NCBI GenBank assembly: GCA_963793115.1
Contig: CAWBYV010000013.1
Coordinates: forward strand, 82,611 to 146,610
Length of the DNA: 64,000 bases
Source: an uncultured delta proteobacterium
GTDB lineage: Bacteria > Desulfobacterota > Binatia > Binatales > Binataceae
Direction of reading: 5' to 3'
The first letter of the stretch is position 1; every line of letters begins with the position of its first letter. Shown piece by piece: positions 18,393 through 23,793 of the stretch. The notes under the pieces were generated by a model. That model did no database searches and was not told the origin of the DNA. It was given only the letters and a program-made list of their open reading frames with translations. Position numbers and translations under genes: made by a program.

Positions 18393-18800
18393 TCAGGACA
18401 GTTGCGCTTTGCGGCGGCGCAACAGGATCGCCGTGCCCCACGACACTGCGAGCGCGATCACGATATACACGAGGCCGAAGATCATCTGGCCCGTATTCGC
18501 CGGCCGCGGGTTCCTGGCGCTGAACATCACCAGGTTGATAACCACGTAAGTGGCATACGCGTATGCCATCGGGAGCGCGTAGCGCCTCATCCGCCAGATG
18601 CCCGCCGCGTAGACCAGAATGAAAATCCCGAACAGCGGCCCGGCGATCGCGTTGGGCACGCCGCCCAGACGCGTGCCGAGAAACACGAACCCGGTATCTG
18701 CGCCTTCCAGCTTGAACGGTTTCAGCAAGTCCGTGACCGCGAGGATCGCGAACAACACCGCGGCCGTGGCCAGCACCCCGCCACGCTTGTCCTGGTTCAT
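18393..18800 (-). CDS. Hypothetical membrane protein (about 4 TM)
   Basis: 135 aa, hydrophobic helices, GGAGGG RBS. Confidence 0.7.
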   Translation of the reverse strand: MNQDKRGGVLATAAVLFAILAVTDLLKPFKLEGADTGFVFLGTRLGGVPNAIAGPLFGIFILVYAAGIWRMRRYALPMAYAYATYVVINLVMFSARNPRPANTGQMIFGLVYIVIALAVSWGTAILLRRRKAQLS

Positions 18801-19020
18801 TTGCCCTCCCTGGCCAACGCTCGGCGCAGGCCGCCCGGCATTCCTGAACGCACGCCCGATCGCTCGACACTTCTAATCGCACGAGTATCGGGCCGGTTCA
18901 ACCGTCGCTGCGCGGCATCCTCGGGGTCAGGCCCAGCGGCCGGTCCTGTAACCAGCCATGAGAGGACATCACGCTCCTACAATAAGTTACTATCAAATAC
19001 TACTGGCTATTCGAGAGTGC

Positions 19021-19049
19021 TTGACATTTCGTCGCCATCTTTCTACACA
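19021..19049 (+). promoter_or_regulatory. Sigma70-like promoter for the XRE gene
   Basis: TTGACA-N17-TACACA in an AT-rich intergenic tract. The -10 match is weak. Confidence 0.4.
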
Positions 19050-19165
19050 CTGTATTATTCTCATCACTAGCCAGATGCGCCCATATGTCATATTCATTAA
19101 CCAACGGTAATTTGGGGCGGGCGGGCACTACACGCCAGCAGCTTCGTCCTGCAGGAGGGTCGCCA

Positions 19166-19678
19166 ATGTTGCCGGAACCGAAATCCTCAACGCGCCACGA
19201 GCAGGGCGCCGCGGGCGGGTTCGCCCAGAGCGCTTTTCGCGCTCCCGCGCGGAAGGCCGGGGAGAAGAGCCGCACCTTCGGCGACGTGATTCGCGAACGC
19301 CGCCGCCAGCTCGACCTGACTCAGGAGGAGGTGGCGCGCCAGATCAAGACCTCGATTCCCTATGTCGGCCATCTGGAGGCCAACAAGCGCCATGCGTCCG
19401 AAAGTATCGTAGCGCGCCTGGCGGACGTGCTGGGACTCGATGGGCGCGAGTTGTTCTTCCTCGCCAATCCCGGCGCCAAGGCGCTGCTCGACGAGAACCA
19501 TCGCAACGGACATTCGAGCTGGGAGGAATTCCGCCGGGACGAGCGCCTGCTGCGGGCCTTCGGCGTCACGCCGCTGGAGCTGGAGATGCTCTCGCAGGTG
19601 GCGCTGATGGGCGAGGTGCGCAGCGTGCGCGATTTCGTCTACATCCTCAATACCGTGCGCCAGGCGCTTTCACGGTGA
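19166..19678 (+). CDS. XRE-family HTH transcriptional regulator with a C-terminal helical domain
   Basis: FGDVIRERRRQLDLTQEEVARQI...YVGHLEANKR HTH_3 motif. AGGAGGG RBS before ATG 19166. Confidence 0.9.
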   Translation: MLPEPKSSTRHEQGAAGGFAQSAFRAPARKAGEKSRTFGDVIRERRRQLDLTQEEVARQIKTSIPYVGHLEANKRHASESIVARLADVLGLDGRELFFLANPGAKALLDENHRNGHSSWEEFRRDERLLRAFGVTPLELEMLSQVALMGEVRSVRDFVYILNTVRQALSR

Positions 19679-19771
19679 ACTCGCCGGCCGCCACGCCCGG
19701 TGGCTGGTCGCAGAGCCACGGAGCGCCGGCCGCCTACACGCGCAGGCAATAAACCGGGAGGAAAAGTTTCC

Positions 19772-19990
19772 ATGAAGGGCGATCGTCCGTTTCTCCCCGA
19801 CCACGAAATTGGCGCCGGCGAGCGCCGCAGGATGTGGGAAGAGTTCAGCAACGACCAGGAGTTGCTGAAACTCTACAACGTGAAGGCCGACGAGATGGAA
19901 TCCCTGAAGCAGGCGGCGTTGCTCGGCACCCTGCTCAACAAGCACGACTTCATCTTCATGCTCGGCATCATCCGCCGCAGCCACCGCTAG
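19772..19990 (+). CDS. 72-aa stand-alone paralog of the XRE C-terminal domain (candidate antirepressor)
   Basis: GGGAGGA RBS. WEEF...LL...V...E.E.L.Q.AL.G...DF...L...R aligns ungapped to the XRE C-terminus. Confidence 0.8.
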   Translation: MKGDRPFLPDHEIGAGERRRMWEEFSNDQELLKLYNVKADEMESLKQAALLGTLLNKHDFIFMLGIIRRSHR

Positions 19991-20026: not shown

Positions 20027-22252
20027 TCACTTCGTGCCGAATTCCAGGACCAGCTCGTCAGGTTCCAGGTCTTCGCGCGAACCCAGGAGATCGAGGTAGA
20101 GCTTGAGCGCCACGTCTTCGGGCTTTGCTCGTGCGAGTTGTTGCAGTAGTTCAAGAGCGCCGACCGAGCGTGTCCTGCGCGCCGCATCCAGCGCTTCCGA
20201 AAAGCTCCTGTAATACGAATGGTCGATCACCTCGGATTCCCGGCTGACTATCTCCCAGATCGCGACTGGCTGTTGCTTTCCTTTGACCCGGATCAAGCCC
20301 CGATCGCGCGCGACATAAGGCCCGCCAGCTTCGCGGTAAGTCTGCTCGTTAACCAGCATGGAGACTTTCAAATGGCGAGTCAGACTTTCCAACCGCGCGG
20401 CCAGATTGACGGGATCTCCGACTACGGAGTAATCGAACCGTCGAGCACCGCCGAGATTCCCGACAATCGCCTCGCCGGTCGCAATTCCCACGCCCATCCC
20501 GAAATCGGCAAAGCGTGAATCTCGCTCACGCAGCCGCCTAAGCTGCCCGAGCATTTCCAGACCGCAATCAATCGCCTGGCGGGCCGGATTTTCGACGCGC
20601 GCCGGGGCGCCCCAAAAGGCCATAATCGAGTCTCCAACGATCTTGTCGATTACGCCGCCGCTCTTGATCACCACCTCGGTCATCGCCGACATGAACTCGT
20701 TGAGCGTTTCCACCAAGGCTTCCGGCGCAAGCGCCTCCGCCTTGGCCGTAAAATCTACGATGTCGGCAAAGAGGATGCTTAGATGGCGTTTCTCGCCGCC
20801 CAGGTCGAGTCCGGCAGGATCGGCCATCACCGAGTCTATGATTTTGGGGTCGAGATAGTGCTCGAAGGCACTGCGAAACCGTTCTCGCTCACGCCGCCTC
20901 CGGTTAATCACAATGAAAGCAGCGCCTGAATAGACCAGAGCGGCACCGCCCGCCTGAGCGGCGGAGGAATAGACGACATCTCTGAAAGCCAAATTCAACG
21001 CGTCGATAACGAACGCTTGGACGATAAAGAGGAATCCCATGCCGAAAGTCCAAAGTGCGGCGCCTTTCGGTCGGGTTACACACCACGCCAAAATCCACAA
21101 GCCTAGCGCAAGGTCCAACGCGAGCCCTGCCAAGATCTCCCATGAAGCCTTCCACCGCAGGATTTGGCCGGAAAGAATGTCCTCGACAGCGCTCGCTTGG
21201 ATTTCAACATAAGAGCGCGGACCCGCATAGGTTGGAACGGACTTGTCGATCATCTCGCCAACAAGAACGATCTTACCCTTGAGGTCGGAGGTTTTGACCT
21301 TCCGCTCGATGATGTCCGAGACCGAGAATTGGGGAAAGGCGTCCGGCGGCCGCAGGTTTACCAACATCACACCCCATTGTGTGGCCGGAATGACGGTGTT
21401 GCCCACCGCAACTTCGTCAACCCACGAACCCGACCGCGTCAGCGTGATAGGGGCATCGCCGAGATAGCGGCTTACAAGCGCTACCGGGAGAGGAGCGTAG
21501 TACGTGTCTCCTATGCGAGCGAACGCAGCGACACCCCAAACAAACGGAATGCCCCAACGCCCCACGCTTGCGGTACCAAGTGAGGCCTTCCCCAGGGCGA
21601 CCGACGGCCCATAATAAGACTTCATTGGCGGAACCCTCGTAAGCACCGAGGGGCCGGCAAGTATCTCGTCGGCTAGATGTCGAGTAGGAGGTCGCCGCAG
21701 CACCTTATACGTCACTGCGCCCACGGCATTCATCGACCTGGTGTCGGCAATGGCGTCGGCGTCGGGCTCGGTTGACCAAGTGAAGTCATACGCCAAGTAA
21801 GTCGCGCCCTGCTGTTTTAGGGCTTCAATCAGAGGGGTCTCGTCTCCAAGCAGGTCCCCGGATATTTCCTGTCCCGGTGCGCGCCGAGGCGTGTCTGGTG
21901 TGTTCAGCGGAGCCCGAAGGGCAGGAGGCGCATGATCGCCCTTCTGCAAATGTACCGGCAGACTCACGACCCGCGCGCCGTATTCGCCGAGCGCGGAAAT
22001 CAGGTCAGCATACTGTTTTGCACTCCAGGGCGGGCGCCCCATTCGATCGGCGGTTCGCTCGTCGATCGCGGCGATTACGACCGCGCTGCTGTTCTTCGCC
22101 TGCGGCCGGAAACGCATCAGAAGCGGAAGCATCTTGTCCACAGGGTAATACGAGAGAACGGGAAGGAAGTATTGCAGAACCAGAATGCCGACGGCTCCCA
22201 CCAACCCCAACAGAATCGTGTCGCGGGCGTCGTGGCTCGCTCTTCTTTTCAT
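20027..22252 (-). CDS. CHASE2-domain adenylate/guanylate cyclase (class III)
   Basis: VVIAAIDERT (CHASE2), 3 TM helices, ILFADIVDFT, DKIVGDSIMAFWGAP, YSVVGDPVNLAARLESL. Start at ATG 22252. Confidence 0.92.
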   Translation of the reverse strand: MKRRASHDARDTILLGLVGAVGILVLQYFLPVLSYYPVDKMLPLLMRFRPQAKNSSAVVIAAIDERTADRMGRPPWSAKQYADLISALGEYGARVVSLPVHLQKGDHAPPALRAPLNTPDTPRRAPGQEISGDLLGDETPLIEALKQQGATYLAYDFTWSTEPDADAIADTRSMNAVGAVTYKVLRRPPTRHLADEILAGPSVLTRVPPMKSYYGPSVALGKASLGTASVGRWGIPFVWGVAAFARIGDTYYAPLPVALVSRYLGDAPITLTRSGSWVDEVAVGNTVIPATQWGVMLVNLRPPDAFPQFSVSDIIERKVKTSDLKGKIVLVGEMIDKSVPTYAGPRSYVEIQASAVEDILSGQILRWKASWEILAGLALDLALGLWILAWCVTRPKGAALWTFGMGFLFIVQAFVIDALNLAFRDVVYSSAAQAGGAALVYSGAAFIVINRRRRERERFRSAFEHYLDPKIIDSVMADPAGLDLGGEKRHLSILFADIVDFTAKAEALAPEALVETLNEFMSAMTEVVIKSGGVIDKIVGDSIMAFWGAPARVENPARQAIDCGLEMLGQLRRLRERDSRFADFGMGVGIATGEAIVGNLGGARRFDYSVVGDPVNLAARLESLTRHLKVSMLVNEQTYREAGGPYVARDRGLIRVKGKQQPVAIWEIVSRESEVIDHSYYRSFSEALDAARRTRSVGALELLQQLARAKPEDVALKLYLDLLGSREDLEPDELVLEFGTK

Positions 22253-22269
22253 GGCGCCGGTCCGCGGCT

Positions 22270-23793
22270 TCACTTTAGGCCGAGGCGGAGGTACTGGTCG
22301 CTGGGCGCTTCGATCTCCTCCAGCGCGGCGCGAAGCTGGTCGGCGGCGGTCTTCTCGGCGCCGGTGCCGGCCAGATTGCGTTCCTCGAGCGGATCGTCGT
22401 CGAGGCGATAGAGATGGTTGCCGCTGAATTTGCCCATCGCCCAGTAGGGAATCAGATCGCCCTGCTGGAACGGCTGCCGGATGACGGGAATCCGGGAACC
22501 CGGCATCCGGTCGAGGATCGCTCGATCGTCGGGCGCCGGAAGGCGGAGATCGGGCACCCGATGGACCGGCATCGTGGACCATCGGTTGGACCACATGCTG
22601 AGCGGCGCGTTGGCTCCGGCCGGAGCGCGAGCATATTTCCCCGCCGGATCGATGAGATGCACCTCGCGTCCCCACACCCCGGCGAGCGCCCATTCGCGGA
22701 CCGACTTCGACGCCCCCGTGATCAGCGGGAGCAGCGAGCGGCCGTGCGTGCGATGCGCCAGCGTCACGCCGAAAACCTCGGCGAGCGTGGCACAGAGGTT
22801 GACGTTAGTGGTGAGAGCCTCGACCGCGCCCGCCTTCATGCCCGGCCACGCGATCATCAGGGGAGTGTGGCCGAGCGGCTCGTATAGCGGCACCTGCGGC
22901 TTGCCCCAGATGTCCTTCTCGCCGAGGTAATGGCCGTGATCGGTGCATATAATGACGGCGCTGTTCTGGTAGAACCCGCCGCGTTCGATCGCGCCCAGCA
23001 ATTTGCCCAGCCAGGTATCGATCATGGTCAGCTTGGCGCCGTAGCTGGCGCGCACCTGCCGCGCCTGGCGCTCGCTCAGCACGCCCTGGCTGACCGCCCC
23101 GCTGACGTACGGCGGCCAGATCAGATGCGCGCCGCTCCACTCGGGGTCGTACATCGAGGCGTACGGTTCGGGAGTATCGAACGGCTCGTGCGGATCGAAT
23201 TCGTCGACGAAGAGCATGAAGCGCTCGTGCACGGGCGCCGACTCGGCGAGCCATCGCGAGGCCGCCGCCATCGTGCGCGGGCCCGGAAAGTCCGGCTCGT
23301 CGCGGAAATATCCGCGCGAGTCATCGTAGGGAGTGTGGCCGCGGCCGAACGACGGCGCACCGAGCCAGCTTGGATCGGGCCGCGTTTTCCACGGGTCGCT
23401 CTCATGGCCGCGCTGGTAGTCCCAGGCGGTGAATTCGGTATGGTAATTCTCGCCGCCGACCTCGAACAGATGTGGATGGTCCGAGACCAGCTTGGTGGTG
23501 ATGCCTGCCGCGCGGAGATAGCCCGTCAGCGGCCGTTCCCAGATTTCGATCGAGCCCCACGGCTTCCACAGGAAGTCCAGCGCGCCGCACAGGATATCGT
23601 GCCGCGCCGGTATGCATGGCAACGAGCCCGAGTAGTGCCGATCGAAGCGAACGGCGCGGCGCGCAAACGCGTCGAGATTCGGGGTCGCGAACTCCCGCCC
23701 GCCGTAGGCGCCCAGCATGTGCCGATTGAGGCTGTCGAGCAGGATTACGATCGCATTGCGAGGCCATGGCGCGGCTATAGGGTCCGGGCTCAT
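22270..23793 (-). CDS. Sulfatase family protein (Cys-type formylglycine motif)
   Basis: LLDSL, CIPARH (CxPxR), FDPHEPF, TDHGHYLGE, GKP. Confidence 0.9.
   Translation of the reverse strand: MSPDPIAAPWPRNAIVILLDSLNRHMLGAYGGREFATPNLDAFARRAVRFDRHYSGSLPCIPARHDILCGALDFLWKPWGSIEIWERPLTGYLRAAGITTKLVSDHPHLFEVGGENYHTEFTAWDYQRGHESDPWKTRPDPSWLGAPSFGRGHTPYDDSRGYFRDEPDFPGPRTMAAASRWLAESAPVHERFMLFVDEFDPHEPFDTPEPYASMYDPEWSGAHLIWPPYVSGAVSQGVLSERQARQVRASYGAKLTMIDTWLGKLLGAIERGGFYQNSAVIICTDHGHYLGEKDIWGKPQVPLYEPLGHTPLMIAWPGMKAGAVEALTTNVNLCATLAEVFGVTLAHRTHGRSLLPLITGASKSVREWALAGVWGREVHLIDPAGKYARAPAGANAPLSMWSNRWSTMPVHRVPDLRLPAPDDRAILDRMPGSRIPVIRQPFQQGDLIPYWAMGKFSGNHLYRLDDDPLEERNLAGTGAEKTAADQLRAALEEIEAPSDQYLRLGLK

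Follow-up and report, generated by a model that had tools for sequence, protein, structure and literature searches.

Antirepression by a small partner protein is best described in Bacillus, where SinI forms a heterodimer with the XRE-family regulator SinR and abolishes its DNA binding (PMC3163267); a SinI-like principle of small antirepressors has recently been proposed for AimX and AimC as well (bioRxiv 10.1101/2025.11.23.689978). XRE-type helix-turn-helix (HTH) proteins such as DdrO bind inverted repeats as dimers (PMC6868357, PMC6765133), and DdrO is inactivated when the peptidase IrrE cuts its C-terminal dimerization domain (PMC6868357, PMC12828697). A 64,000-nucleotide (nt) stretch of DNA from an uncultured delta proteobacterium of the Binataceae (contig CAWBYV010000013.1, positions 82,611 to 146,610; hereafter the window, with positions counted from its first letter) carries a locus that invites comparison with these systems, in which an XRE-family regulator gene is followed on the same strand by a small gene for a stand-alone homolog of the regulator's C-terminal domain (CTD). 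The small protein is proposed to antagonize the regulator as a SinI-like decoy, a reading drawn from sequence comparison and analogy and given a probability of about 0.5. The features of the pair are as follows.

19166-19678, + strand: XRE-family regulator gene (P0001), translated into 170 amino acids (aa)
residues 1-35 of the regulator: disordered N-terminal tail
19277-19465, + strand: HTH of the regulator, residues 38-100
19469-19675, + strand: CTD of the regulator, residues ~102-170, after a linker
19153-19158, + strand: ribosome-binding site of the regulator, AGGAGG
19679-19771: intergenic spacer of 93 nt between the regulator gene and the small gene
19756-19761, + strand: ribosome-binding site of the small gene, GGGAGG, within the spacer
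19772-19990, + strand: small gene (P0002), translated into a stand-alone CTD protein of 72 aa
small protein layout: conserved N-terminal tail (MKGxRPF...), then a four-helix CTD at residues ~15-71

Homology between the small protein and the regulator tail was evident by several measures. In BLASTP, the small protein (residues 22-70) and the regulator (residues 119-167) aligned without gaps (19 of 49 identical, 32 of 49 positive, E=6e-13). When the small protein was shuffled 300 times, the best gapless 49-mer averaged 9.5 identities and never exceeded 14, versus the 19 observed. A profile of stand-alone proteins matched the profile of XRE-linked CTDs over 60 columns with an hhalign probability of 99.7% (E=2.3e-25). 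An earlier note, made by a model from the letters of the window, had reported such a gapless 19-identity match to the regulator's tail, and both the match (over 49 residues by BLASTP) and its coordinates were upheld. Pfam placed HTH_31 (1.8e-13) and HTH_3 (1.9e-12) at residues 38-96 of the regulator only and, at E<=1, matched neither its CTD nor the small protein, in agreement with the same note's statement that the small protein lacks the HTH. The note had further called the small protein a copy of its neighbor's own domain, and of this the homology stands, while the implied origin does not, as the small protein falls in a separate, old stand-alone subfamily. Subfamily models scored it at 88.9 bits as stand-alone versus 58.1 as XRE-linked, and the regulator CTD at 88.4 bits as XRE-linked versus 67.8 as stand-alone. 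In a poorly resolved tree of 164 domains its nearest neighbors were other stand-alone proteins, not the CTD of the adjacent regulator, and the stand-alone label was clustered on that tree (22 changes versus 44 in shuffles). The tree grouping and the subfamily scores together argue that the small protein belongs to an old subfamily of headless proteins and that its gene is no recent partial duplicate of the adjacent gene.

The small gene is a real, conserved gene under purifying selection. Among 5.8 billion proteins searched, 12 related clusters were found at 66-93% identity, 11 of them 72-73 aa long and one of 102 aa, and the MKGxRPF motif and the entire domain are conserved among these relatives. 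In pairwise comparisons of four genomes of the genus, the ratio of nonsynonymous to synonymous divergence (dN/dS) lay at 0.32-0.53 in the small gene and at 0.19-0.31 in the regulator gene, and with dS of up to 1.3 the small gene has neither frameshifts nor stops. Its GC content at codon positions 1, 2 and 3 (0.60/0.32/0.89) is like that of neighboring genes; an overlapping opposite-strand open reading frame (ORF) of 104 aa has a pattern that is not gene-like (0.77/0.48/0.63). Spacer length ranges over 48-137 nt in relatives, with the ribosome-binding site and ATG of the small gene conserved, which also bears out the earlier note's remark that the gene has a ribosome-binding site of its own. 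Relatives have in-frame stops 4-7 codons 5' of the ATG, which therefore fix the start of the small gene at 19772, and independent gene calls on metagenome contigs give the same 72-aa product. A decaying partial duplication, the outcome that the earlier note had set against its own proposal, is excluded by the constant length, the dN/dS of the small gene and the intact frames; counted together with a spurious ORF, it is a very improbable account of the small gene. The gene is indeed short, has no database family and overlaps the 104-aa opposite-strand ORF, but against a spurious origin stand its fixed length, the selection on it, its conserved start and ribosome-binding site, a third-position GC content of 0.89 and hundreds of homologs. 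The survey of pair conservation and dN/dS that the earlier note had suggested thus found purifying selection and a pair kept in the genus: regulator and small gene occur in the same synteny in genomes G000, G001, G003 and G004 and on contigs L109-L111, and the pair is kept on the same strand in six of seven orthologous loci, across dS of ~0.3-1.3. The adjacent pair is confined to one genus.

The CTD resembled no described domain in the searches made with it. Neither it nor the small protein matched any Pfam, NCBIfam, PHROG or PADLOC model, none of 27 stand-alone members matched a Pfam family at E<=0.01, and a CTD profile had no match among PDB sequences. AlphaFold2 models were computed as monomers, that of the regulator from a 70-sequence alignment. 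The regulator model had a predicted local distance difference test score (pLDDT) of 81, with the helices of 38-100 and 102-169 mostly above 85, the linker 111-120 at ~66 and the tail 12-33 below 50, and its CTD helices were placed at 102-112, 118-124, 126-131, 136-147 and 154-169. The small-protein model (pLDDT 78) has helices at 15-27, 29-34, 39-51 and 57-71. The domain, of ~55 residues, follows the pattern W..F...(15)...E...L......G...(15)...R, with columns W22, F25, E41, L45, G52 and R68 invariant in 68 sequences, and these defining W, F, E, L, G and R residues are common to the XRE-linked and stand-alone subfamilies. The best PDB matches of the full-length regulator model were RghR, DdrO, Stl and SinR (E ~1e-3, HTH-driven), SinR (1B0N_A) being matched through its HTH by Foldseek; DdrO aligned over 139-142 columns, but with a root-mean-square deviation of ~11 A and E ~1e-3. 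A CTD-only model retrieved neither DdrO nor 1B0N from the PDB by Foldseek. A SinI-like fold for the CTD was rejected, the domain-only model and the Pfam and PDB profile searches all being without match, and a DdrO-like fold was not demonstrable, as the full-length matches are driven by the HTH and the domain-only model has none. By these sequence and model comparisons the CTD is an undescribed domain unrelated to that of SinR and SinI, and on this point the earlier note, which had spoken of a different, uncharacterized domain, agrees with the Pfam, PDB sequence and fold searches.

The domain is widespread and occurs in several architectures. Searched against 1.84 billion proteins, its profile matched 465 cluster representatives (clustering at 50% identity) with E<=1e-3, and architectures were counted in the best 149 of these representatives: HTH plus CTD in 61, HTH plus two CTDs in four, other N-terminal domains on the CTD in ~20, and stand-alone CTD proteins in roughly 50. 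P0017 and P0019 are HTH-CTD-CTD proteins, and P0016 (307 aa) is HTH-HTH-CTD-CTD, a single-chain "dimer"; the tandem architectures were seen among the metagenome representatives P0016-P0019 and P0021, with both CTDs of the XRE-linked type. The other N-terminal domains include a Cys-rich, Zn-ribbon-like one in a 164-189-aa protein (L034 1679-2248; G008:C2:525068-525559), whose gene in G008 lies 0.7 kb 5' of an XRE-CTD gene, and a domain with the motif FGRxPxPxEPLFFDP in P0085, P0099, P0135 and others. The Zn-ribbon-like domain is also found free-standing, in 108-130-aa ORFs of several Binataceae genomes. The stand-alone CTD proteins are 57-100 aa long, start with Met and a short basic leader, and have the signature RR.vWE.F..D.eL...yNIkP.E.e.L...A.LG...Sk.DfiFmL..iRR.; a second stand-alone type, on C27, is conserved across the genus.

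Within the Binataceae the regulator belongs to a family with many members. Of 25 Binataceae genomes, 24 contain matches to it, at 2-15 places each, and other families of the class have almost none; family members are mostly ~142 aa long, and orthologous groups, 55-70% identical across genera, occupy conserved chromosomal sites. The genome of the window has five intact XRE-CTD genes and one pseudogene, together with four stand-alone CTD genes. In the pseudogene (G000:C16:211209-211575, L005), which is frameshifted, the HTH and CTD parts lie in different frames; a similarly split copy was seen in G003 (C22:152750-153188), and a single in-frame stop interrupts several of the genus's stand-alone CTD copies. 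Recognition helices are near-identical among a genome's XRE-CTD repressors, of which there are five or more. In 37 of 75 Binataceae loci, one or two major facilitator superfamily (MFS) transporter genes lie 3' of the XRE-CTD gene on the same strand. FtsX-like permeases also recur among the neighbors, as do an acyl-CoA-dehydrogenase-like gene (31 loci) and, upstream, a possible outer-membrane protein rich in Thr (35 loci). Four Peptidase_M78 (PF06114) genes are present in this genome, none adjoining the pair, and no M78 peptidase gene is adjacent to the pair in the window or in its relatives. A paralogous XRE-CTD gene (215-aa ORF), on the other hand, shares 13 nt with the start of a 299-aa M78 gene that has a HELGH motif, and homologous M78 genes follow XRE-CTD genes at three further loci (e.g., L033 3489-4406).

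L006 545-2079 (G000:C24:14479-16013), - strand: locus of the XRE-CTD paralog and its M78 gene

Upstream of the regulator, GC content falls to 43% in an island at 18940-19110, against 64% for the window, and the following elements of the control region were recognized.

18977-18989, + strand: box A, CTACAATAAGTTA, within the low-GC island, with CTACA-N4-GTTA in seven of seven orthologous loci
19021-19049, + strand: putative promoter, with -35 TTGACA at 19021-19026, a 17-nt spacer and -10-like TACACA at 19044-19049
19043-19054, + strand: box B, CTACACACTGTA, a perfect 4-3-4 inverted repeat TACA-N3-TGTA overlapping the -10

A strict sigma-70 consensus scan found no site here, and the promoter is assigned to the operon because it is conserved: CTTGACA is invariant in all seven orthologous loci, as is TACA.A at a fixed distance from it, and most XRE-CTD paralogs in other genera have an upstream layout TTGNC-17-TAC(T/A)AA, also given as TTGCCT-17-TAC(T/A)AA. 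The CTACA...TGTA of box B is likewise invariant in seven of seven loci around a variable 3-nt center, and a near-palindrome, ACTWAC-N-GTWAGT, takes its place in the paralogs of other genera, in either orientation; box B is probably an autoregulatory operator. For box A we infer an operator or an UP-like element. When the genome was scanned for the box of other genera, GGTACTAACTGTAAG, with <=4 mismatches allowed, there were 176 matches versus ~450 in shuffles and hence no enrichment, and this box is not in use in the window's genus. Upstream of the XRE-CTD genes of L036-L102, in the stretch from ~-150 to -40 relative to the start codon, many paralogs have a palindrome at a fixed place after the conserved -10 box, its sequence differing by paralog group (CACCAtttTGGTG, CCCAATtgATTGGG, TACAtctatctgatTGTA); these palindromes could reflect either operators specific to each paralog or a hairpin in the leader RNA that has undergone compensatory changes. 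Rfam has no element in the ~120-nt 5' leader. In G001 and G004 the leader carries a GC-rich insert of ~77 nt between an AT-rich block and the start codon, which is absent from the window (19100-19165), L109, L110 and G003. A terminator scan found no terminator-like hairpin between the regulator and the small gene, and the two are apparently co-transcribed as a two-gene operon.

These observations suggest that the CTD is both the oligomerization domain of the repressors and their regulatory target. An oligomerizing role is suggested because the regulator has no folded parts other than its HTH and this domain and its candidate operator has the form of an inverted repeat, and because tandem CTD-CTD and HTH-HTH-CTD-CTD proteins would be expected if two CTDs pack together; fusion to unrelated N-terminal domains points to a portable interaction module. 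The CTD may also be the regulatory weak point of the family, given the coupling of paralogs to an M78 gene and the analogy with DdrO and IrrE. In the proposed mechanism the regulator would be a repressor whose all-helical CTD mediates the dimerization or oligomerization needed for binding a palindromic operator, which is probably TACA-N3-TGTA over the -10 of the regulator's own promoter. The small protein would most likely form mixed CTD-CTD complexes with the neighboring regulator, and possibly also with the four other intact XRE-CTD paralogs of the genome. Having too few DNA-binding heads, such complexes would make the small protein a microProtein-like antagonist or titrator, and with the antagonist co-transcribed with its target, negative autoregulation would be coupled to a titration-based positive feedback, a combination that may sharpen the response. 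Titration by a headless CTD would then serve the same end as cleavage by an M78 peptidase. The bistable cell-fate switch envisaged in the earlier note is another matter; nothing in the data supports it, and feedback alone is no proof of bistability.

Several points weigh against the small protein being a decoy for its neighbor. In G002 the regulator (84% identical, CTD intact) is kept after the ROK gene without the small gene, an unrelated 165-aa ORF lying 3' of it, and six of six other stand-alone genes examined on long contigs have no adjacent HTH gene; pairing of regulator and stand-alone protein is therefore not obligatory, and a general pairing of stand-alone CTD genes with regulators was rejected on the same six contexts. 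The small protein is 39% identical to its neighbor's CTD and groups with other stand-alone proteins, and its preferred partner may be another protein or itself. A model of the small protein alone matched no known dimerization fold, the best Foldseek matches having E=2.6 in the PDB and E=2.4 in BFVD. An antagonist made at a fixed ratio by co-transcription with its target is an odd switch design, and in Bacillus sinI has its own regulated promoter. Lastly, box B may be conserved simply as the -10 element.

Other readings of the pair must be set beside the SinI-like decoy, and each of them is held to be improbable. The least doubtful is a Binataceae-specific network of hetero-oligomerizing CTDs, tentatively considered here, in which full-length and headless subunits, fusions to other N-terminal domains and clipping by M78 peptidases would jointly set repression. 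The CTD-only proteins would each be made from their own promoter, the operon of the window being the sole site with a headless subunit hard-wired to one regulator, and candidate targets would be the neighbors of the paralogs, for example the downstream MFS transporters. It is unlikely, and rather more so than the network, that the CTD is instead a surface for a third factor (an M78 protease, a sensor or a ligand) for which the free CTD competes, thereby protecting or sensitizing the regulator. The translational coupling of some XRE-CTD paralogs to an M78 gene, the four M78 genes of the genome and the fact that the full-length model has DdrO, whose CTD is the substrate of IrrE, among its best PDB matches would all suit such competition; but the pair itself has no adjoining M78 gene, the CTD-only model does not match the DdrO CTD, and since the cleaved domain of DdrO itself dimerizes, this explanation largely merges with the decoy model.

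Somewhat less likely again is an independent function, whereby the stand-alone CTD proteins act alone, for instance as homodimers acting on some other cellular target, and adjacency to the regulator is accidental. The six orphan genes are what would be expected of it, as are the subfamily's own signature and N-terminal tails and a tree that places the small protein with stand-alone members, yet it would leave unexplained a same-strand pair kept 48-137 nt apart in six of seven loci across dS of ~0.3-1.3, and the domain-defining residues that both subfamilies have in common. The lowest standing among these readings is given to a positive or specificity subunit, that is, a mixed oligomer that still binds DNA with altered affinity, spacing or stability, the small protein serving as co-repressor or stabilizer. 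A precedent exists in SlrR, which re-purposes SinR, and the apparent co-transcription at a fixed ratio with strong ribosome-binding sites would suit an obligate partner better than a conditional antagonist; the basic N-terminal tail (MKGxRPF...ERRR), unique to the small protein, could in addition contact DNA or the HTH. An obligate partner is nevertheless difficult to reconcile with the retention of the regulator without the small gene in G002 and with the orphan state of most stand-alone members, and Pfam finds no DNA-binding domain in the small protein.

Surrounding genes were compared with those of related loci, which come from metagenome-assembled genomes labeled Candidatus Binataceae, Binatus and "uncultured delta proteobacterium". 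Two neighbors flank the pair in the window.

18393-18800, - strand: membrane protein gene of 135 aa, divergent from the regulator gene, with a 365-bp control region between them (from the ORF list)
~20027-22693, - strand: CHASE2-type adenylate-cyclase-like gene, between the small gene and a sulfatase gene

The gene order CHAD, ROK kinase, 135-aa membrane protein (- strand), XRE, small gene, sulfatase (- strand) is kept in close relatives. The membrane protein gene is at the same place in G001 and contigs L109-L111, missing from G002 and replaced by a different gene in G003; from position alone it is a possible second target of the regulator. In L109 and L110 the sulfatase gene directly follows the small gene and the cyclase gene is absent. 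The cyclase gene is thus either an insertion in the window or a loss in L109 and L110, and since it is missing in close relatives it is not a conserved partner of the pair, which leaves the link to the adjacent cyclase raised in the earlier note unsupported; for the link to a lysis cassette, raised there as well, no support was found. The longest ORF of the cyclase gene has 888 aa and overlaps the sulfatase gene, so that the true start is probably further in.

Several other origins and mechanisms were considered for the locus and rejected. The surroundings are chromosomal housekeeping genes, and a phage or defense origin was dismissed, as PHROGs and PADLOC match the HTH only and nothing in the small protein, and the neighbors are housekeeping genes. 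A type II toxin-antitoxin system (HipB, HigA or Y4mF type) was likewise discarded: the best NCBIfam match, couple_hipB, reaches 35 bits against a cut-off of 71.65 and covers the HTH only, and no toxin gene lies next to the regulator, the only co-oriented neighbor being the CTD homolog. The regulator and small gene are in frame in the window, separated by one TGA and 31 sense codons, so that a fusion of 274 aa results under genetic code table 4, and G004 has the same in-frame layout behind a single TGA, with a read-through product of 264 aa (L030 3448-3498). Programmed TGA read-through was nevertheless rejected, for the frames differ in G001, G003 and L110, L109 has two stops, and the arrangement looks coincidental.

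To our knowledge, the Binatota are a phylum without a cultured representative or characterized regulators, and the pair, if it works as proposed, would give a handle on gene control in these abundant soil bacteria. It would also be a chromosomal, non-phage addition to the small antirepressors, and the decoy with its set of regulator paralogs would offer a natural system for studies of interaction specificity. The Binataceae tail-domain family is of more interest than the single pair, and with 465 clusters and several architectures it is large enough for a domain definition.

Compared with known systems, the locus is most like SinR/SinI and SlrR/SlrA, in that an XRE-HTH regulator with a helical CTD stands next to a small homolog of that domain alone and, as for SinI and SlrA, several regulator paralogs and several small paralogs occur per genome (PMC3917956). 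It differs in that the domain is unrelated, with four predicted helices over ~55 residues instead of a two-helix hook, in that the regulator gene comes first and the two genes are apparently co-transcribed, and in that most stand-alone CTD genes are not beside a regulator; pairing of the proteins is moreover proposed here from sequence comparison. If the decoy reading holds, the SinI/SinR principle would have been invented independently here, on a new domain. The AimC/AimX system, from extended arbitrium modules of Bacillus phages, is phage-borne and controlled by a peptide signal, and AimX has not been described as a homolog of an AimC domain, whereas the small protein here is a clear homolog and its locus is chromosomal. 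DdrO/IrrE (PprI) of Deinococcus and ImmR/ImmA also have an XRE repressor of ~130-170 aa with a helical CTD, which in their case is needed for dimerization (PMC6868357, PMC12828697). Derepression in those systems comes about by destruction of the CTD, and paralogs of the present family are coupled to an M78 gene; the pair described here differs in having no adjacent peptidase, and inactivation is proposed to proceed by decoy and not by cleavage.

A further parallel is found among eukaryotic microProteins, such as Id acting on bHLH proteins and LITTLE ZIPPER on HD-ZIPIII proteins, which consist of a dimerization domain only and titrate several members of a family. Those proteins use different folds, and a network in the Binataceae is suggested by the copy numbers of five intact XRE-CTD and four stand-alone genes; should it exist, it would be a bacterial counterpart of bHLH/Id or HD-ZIP/ZPR.

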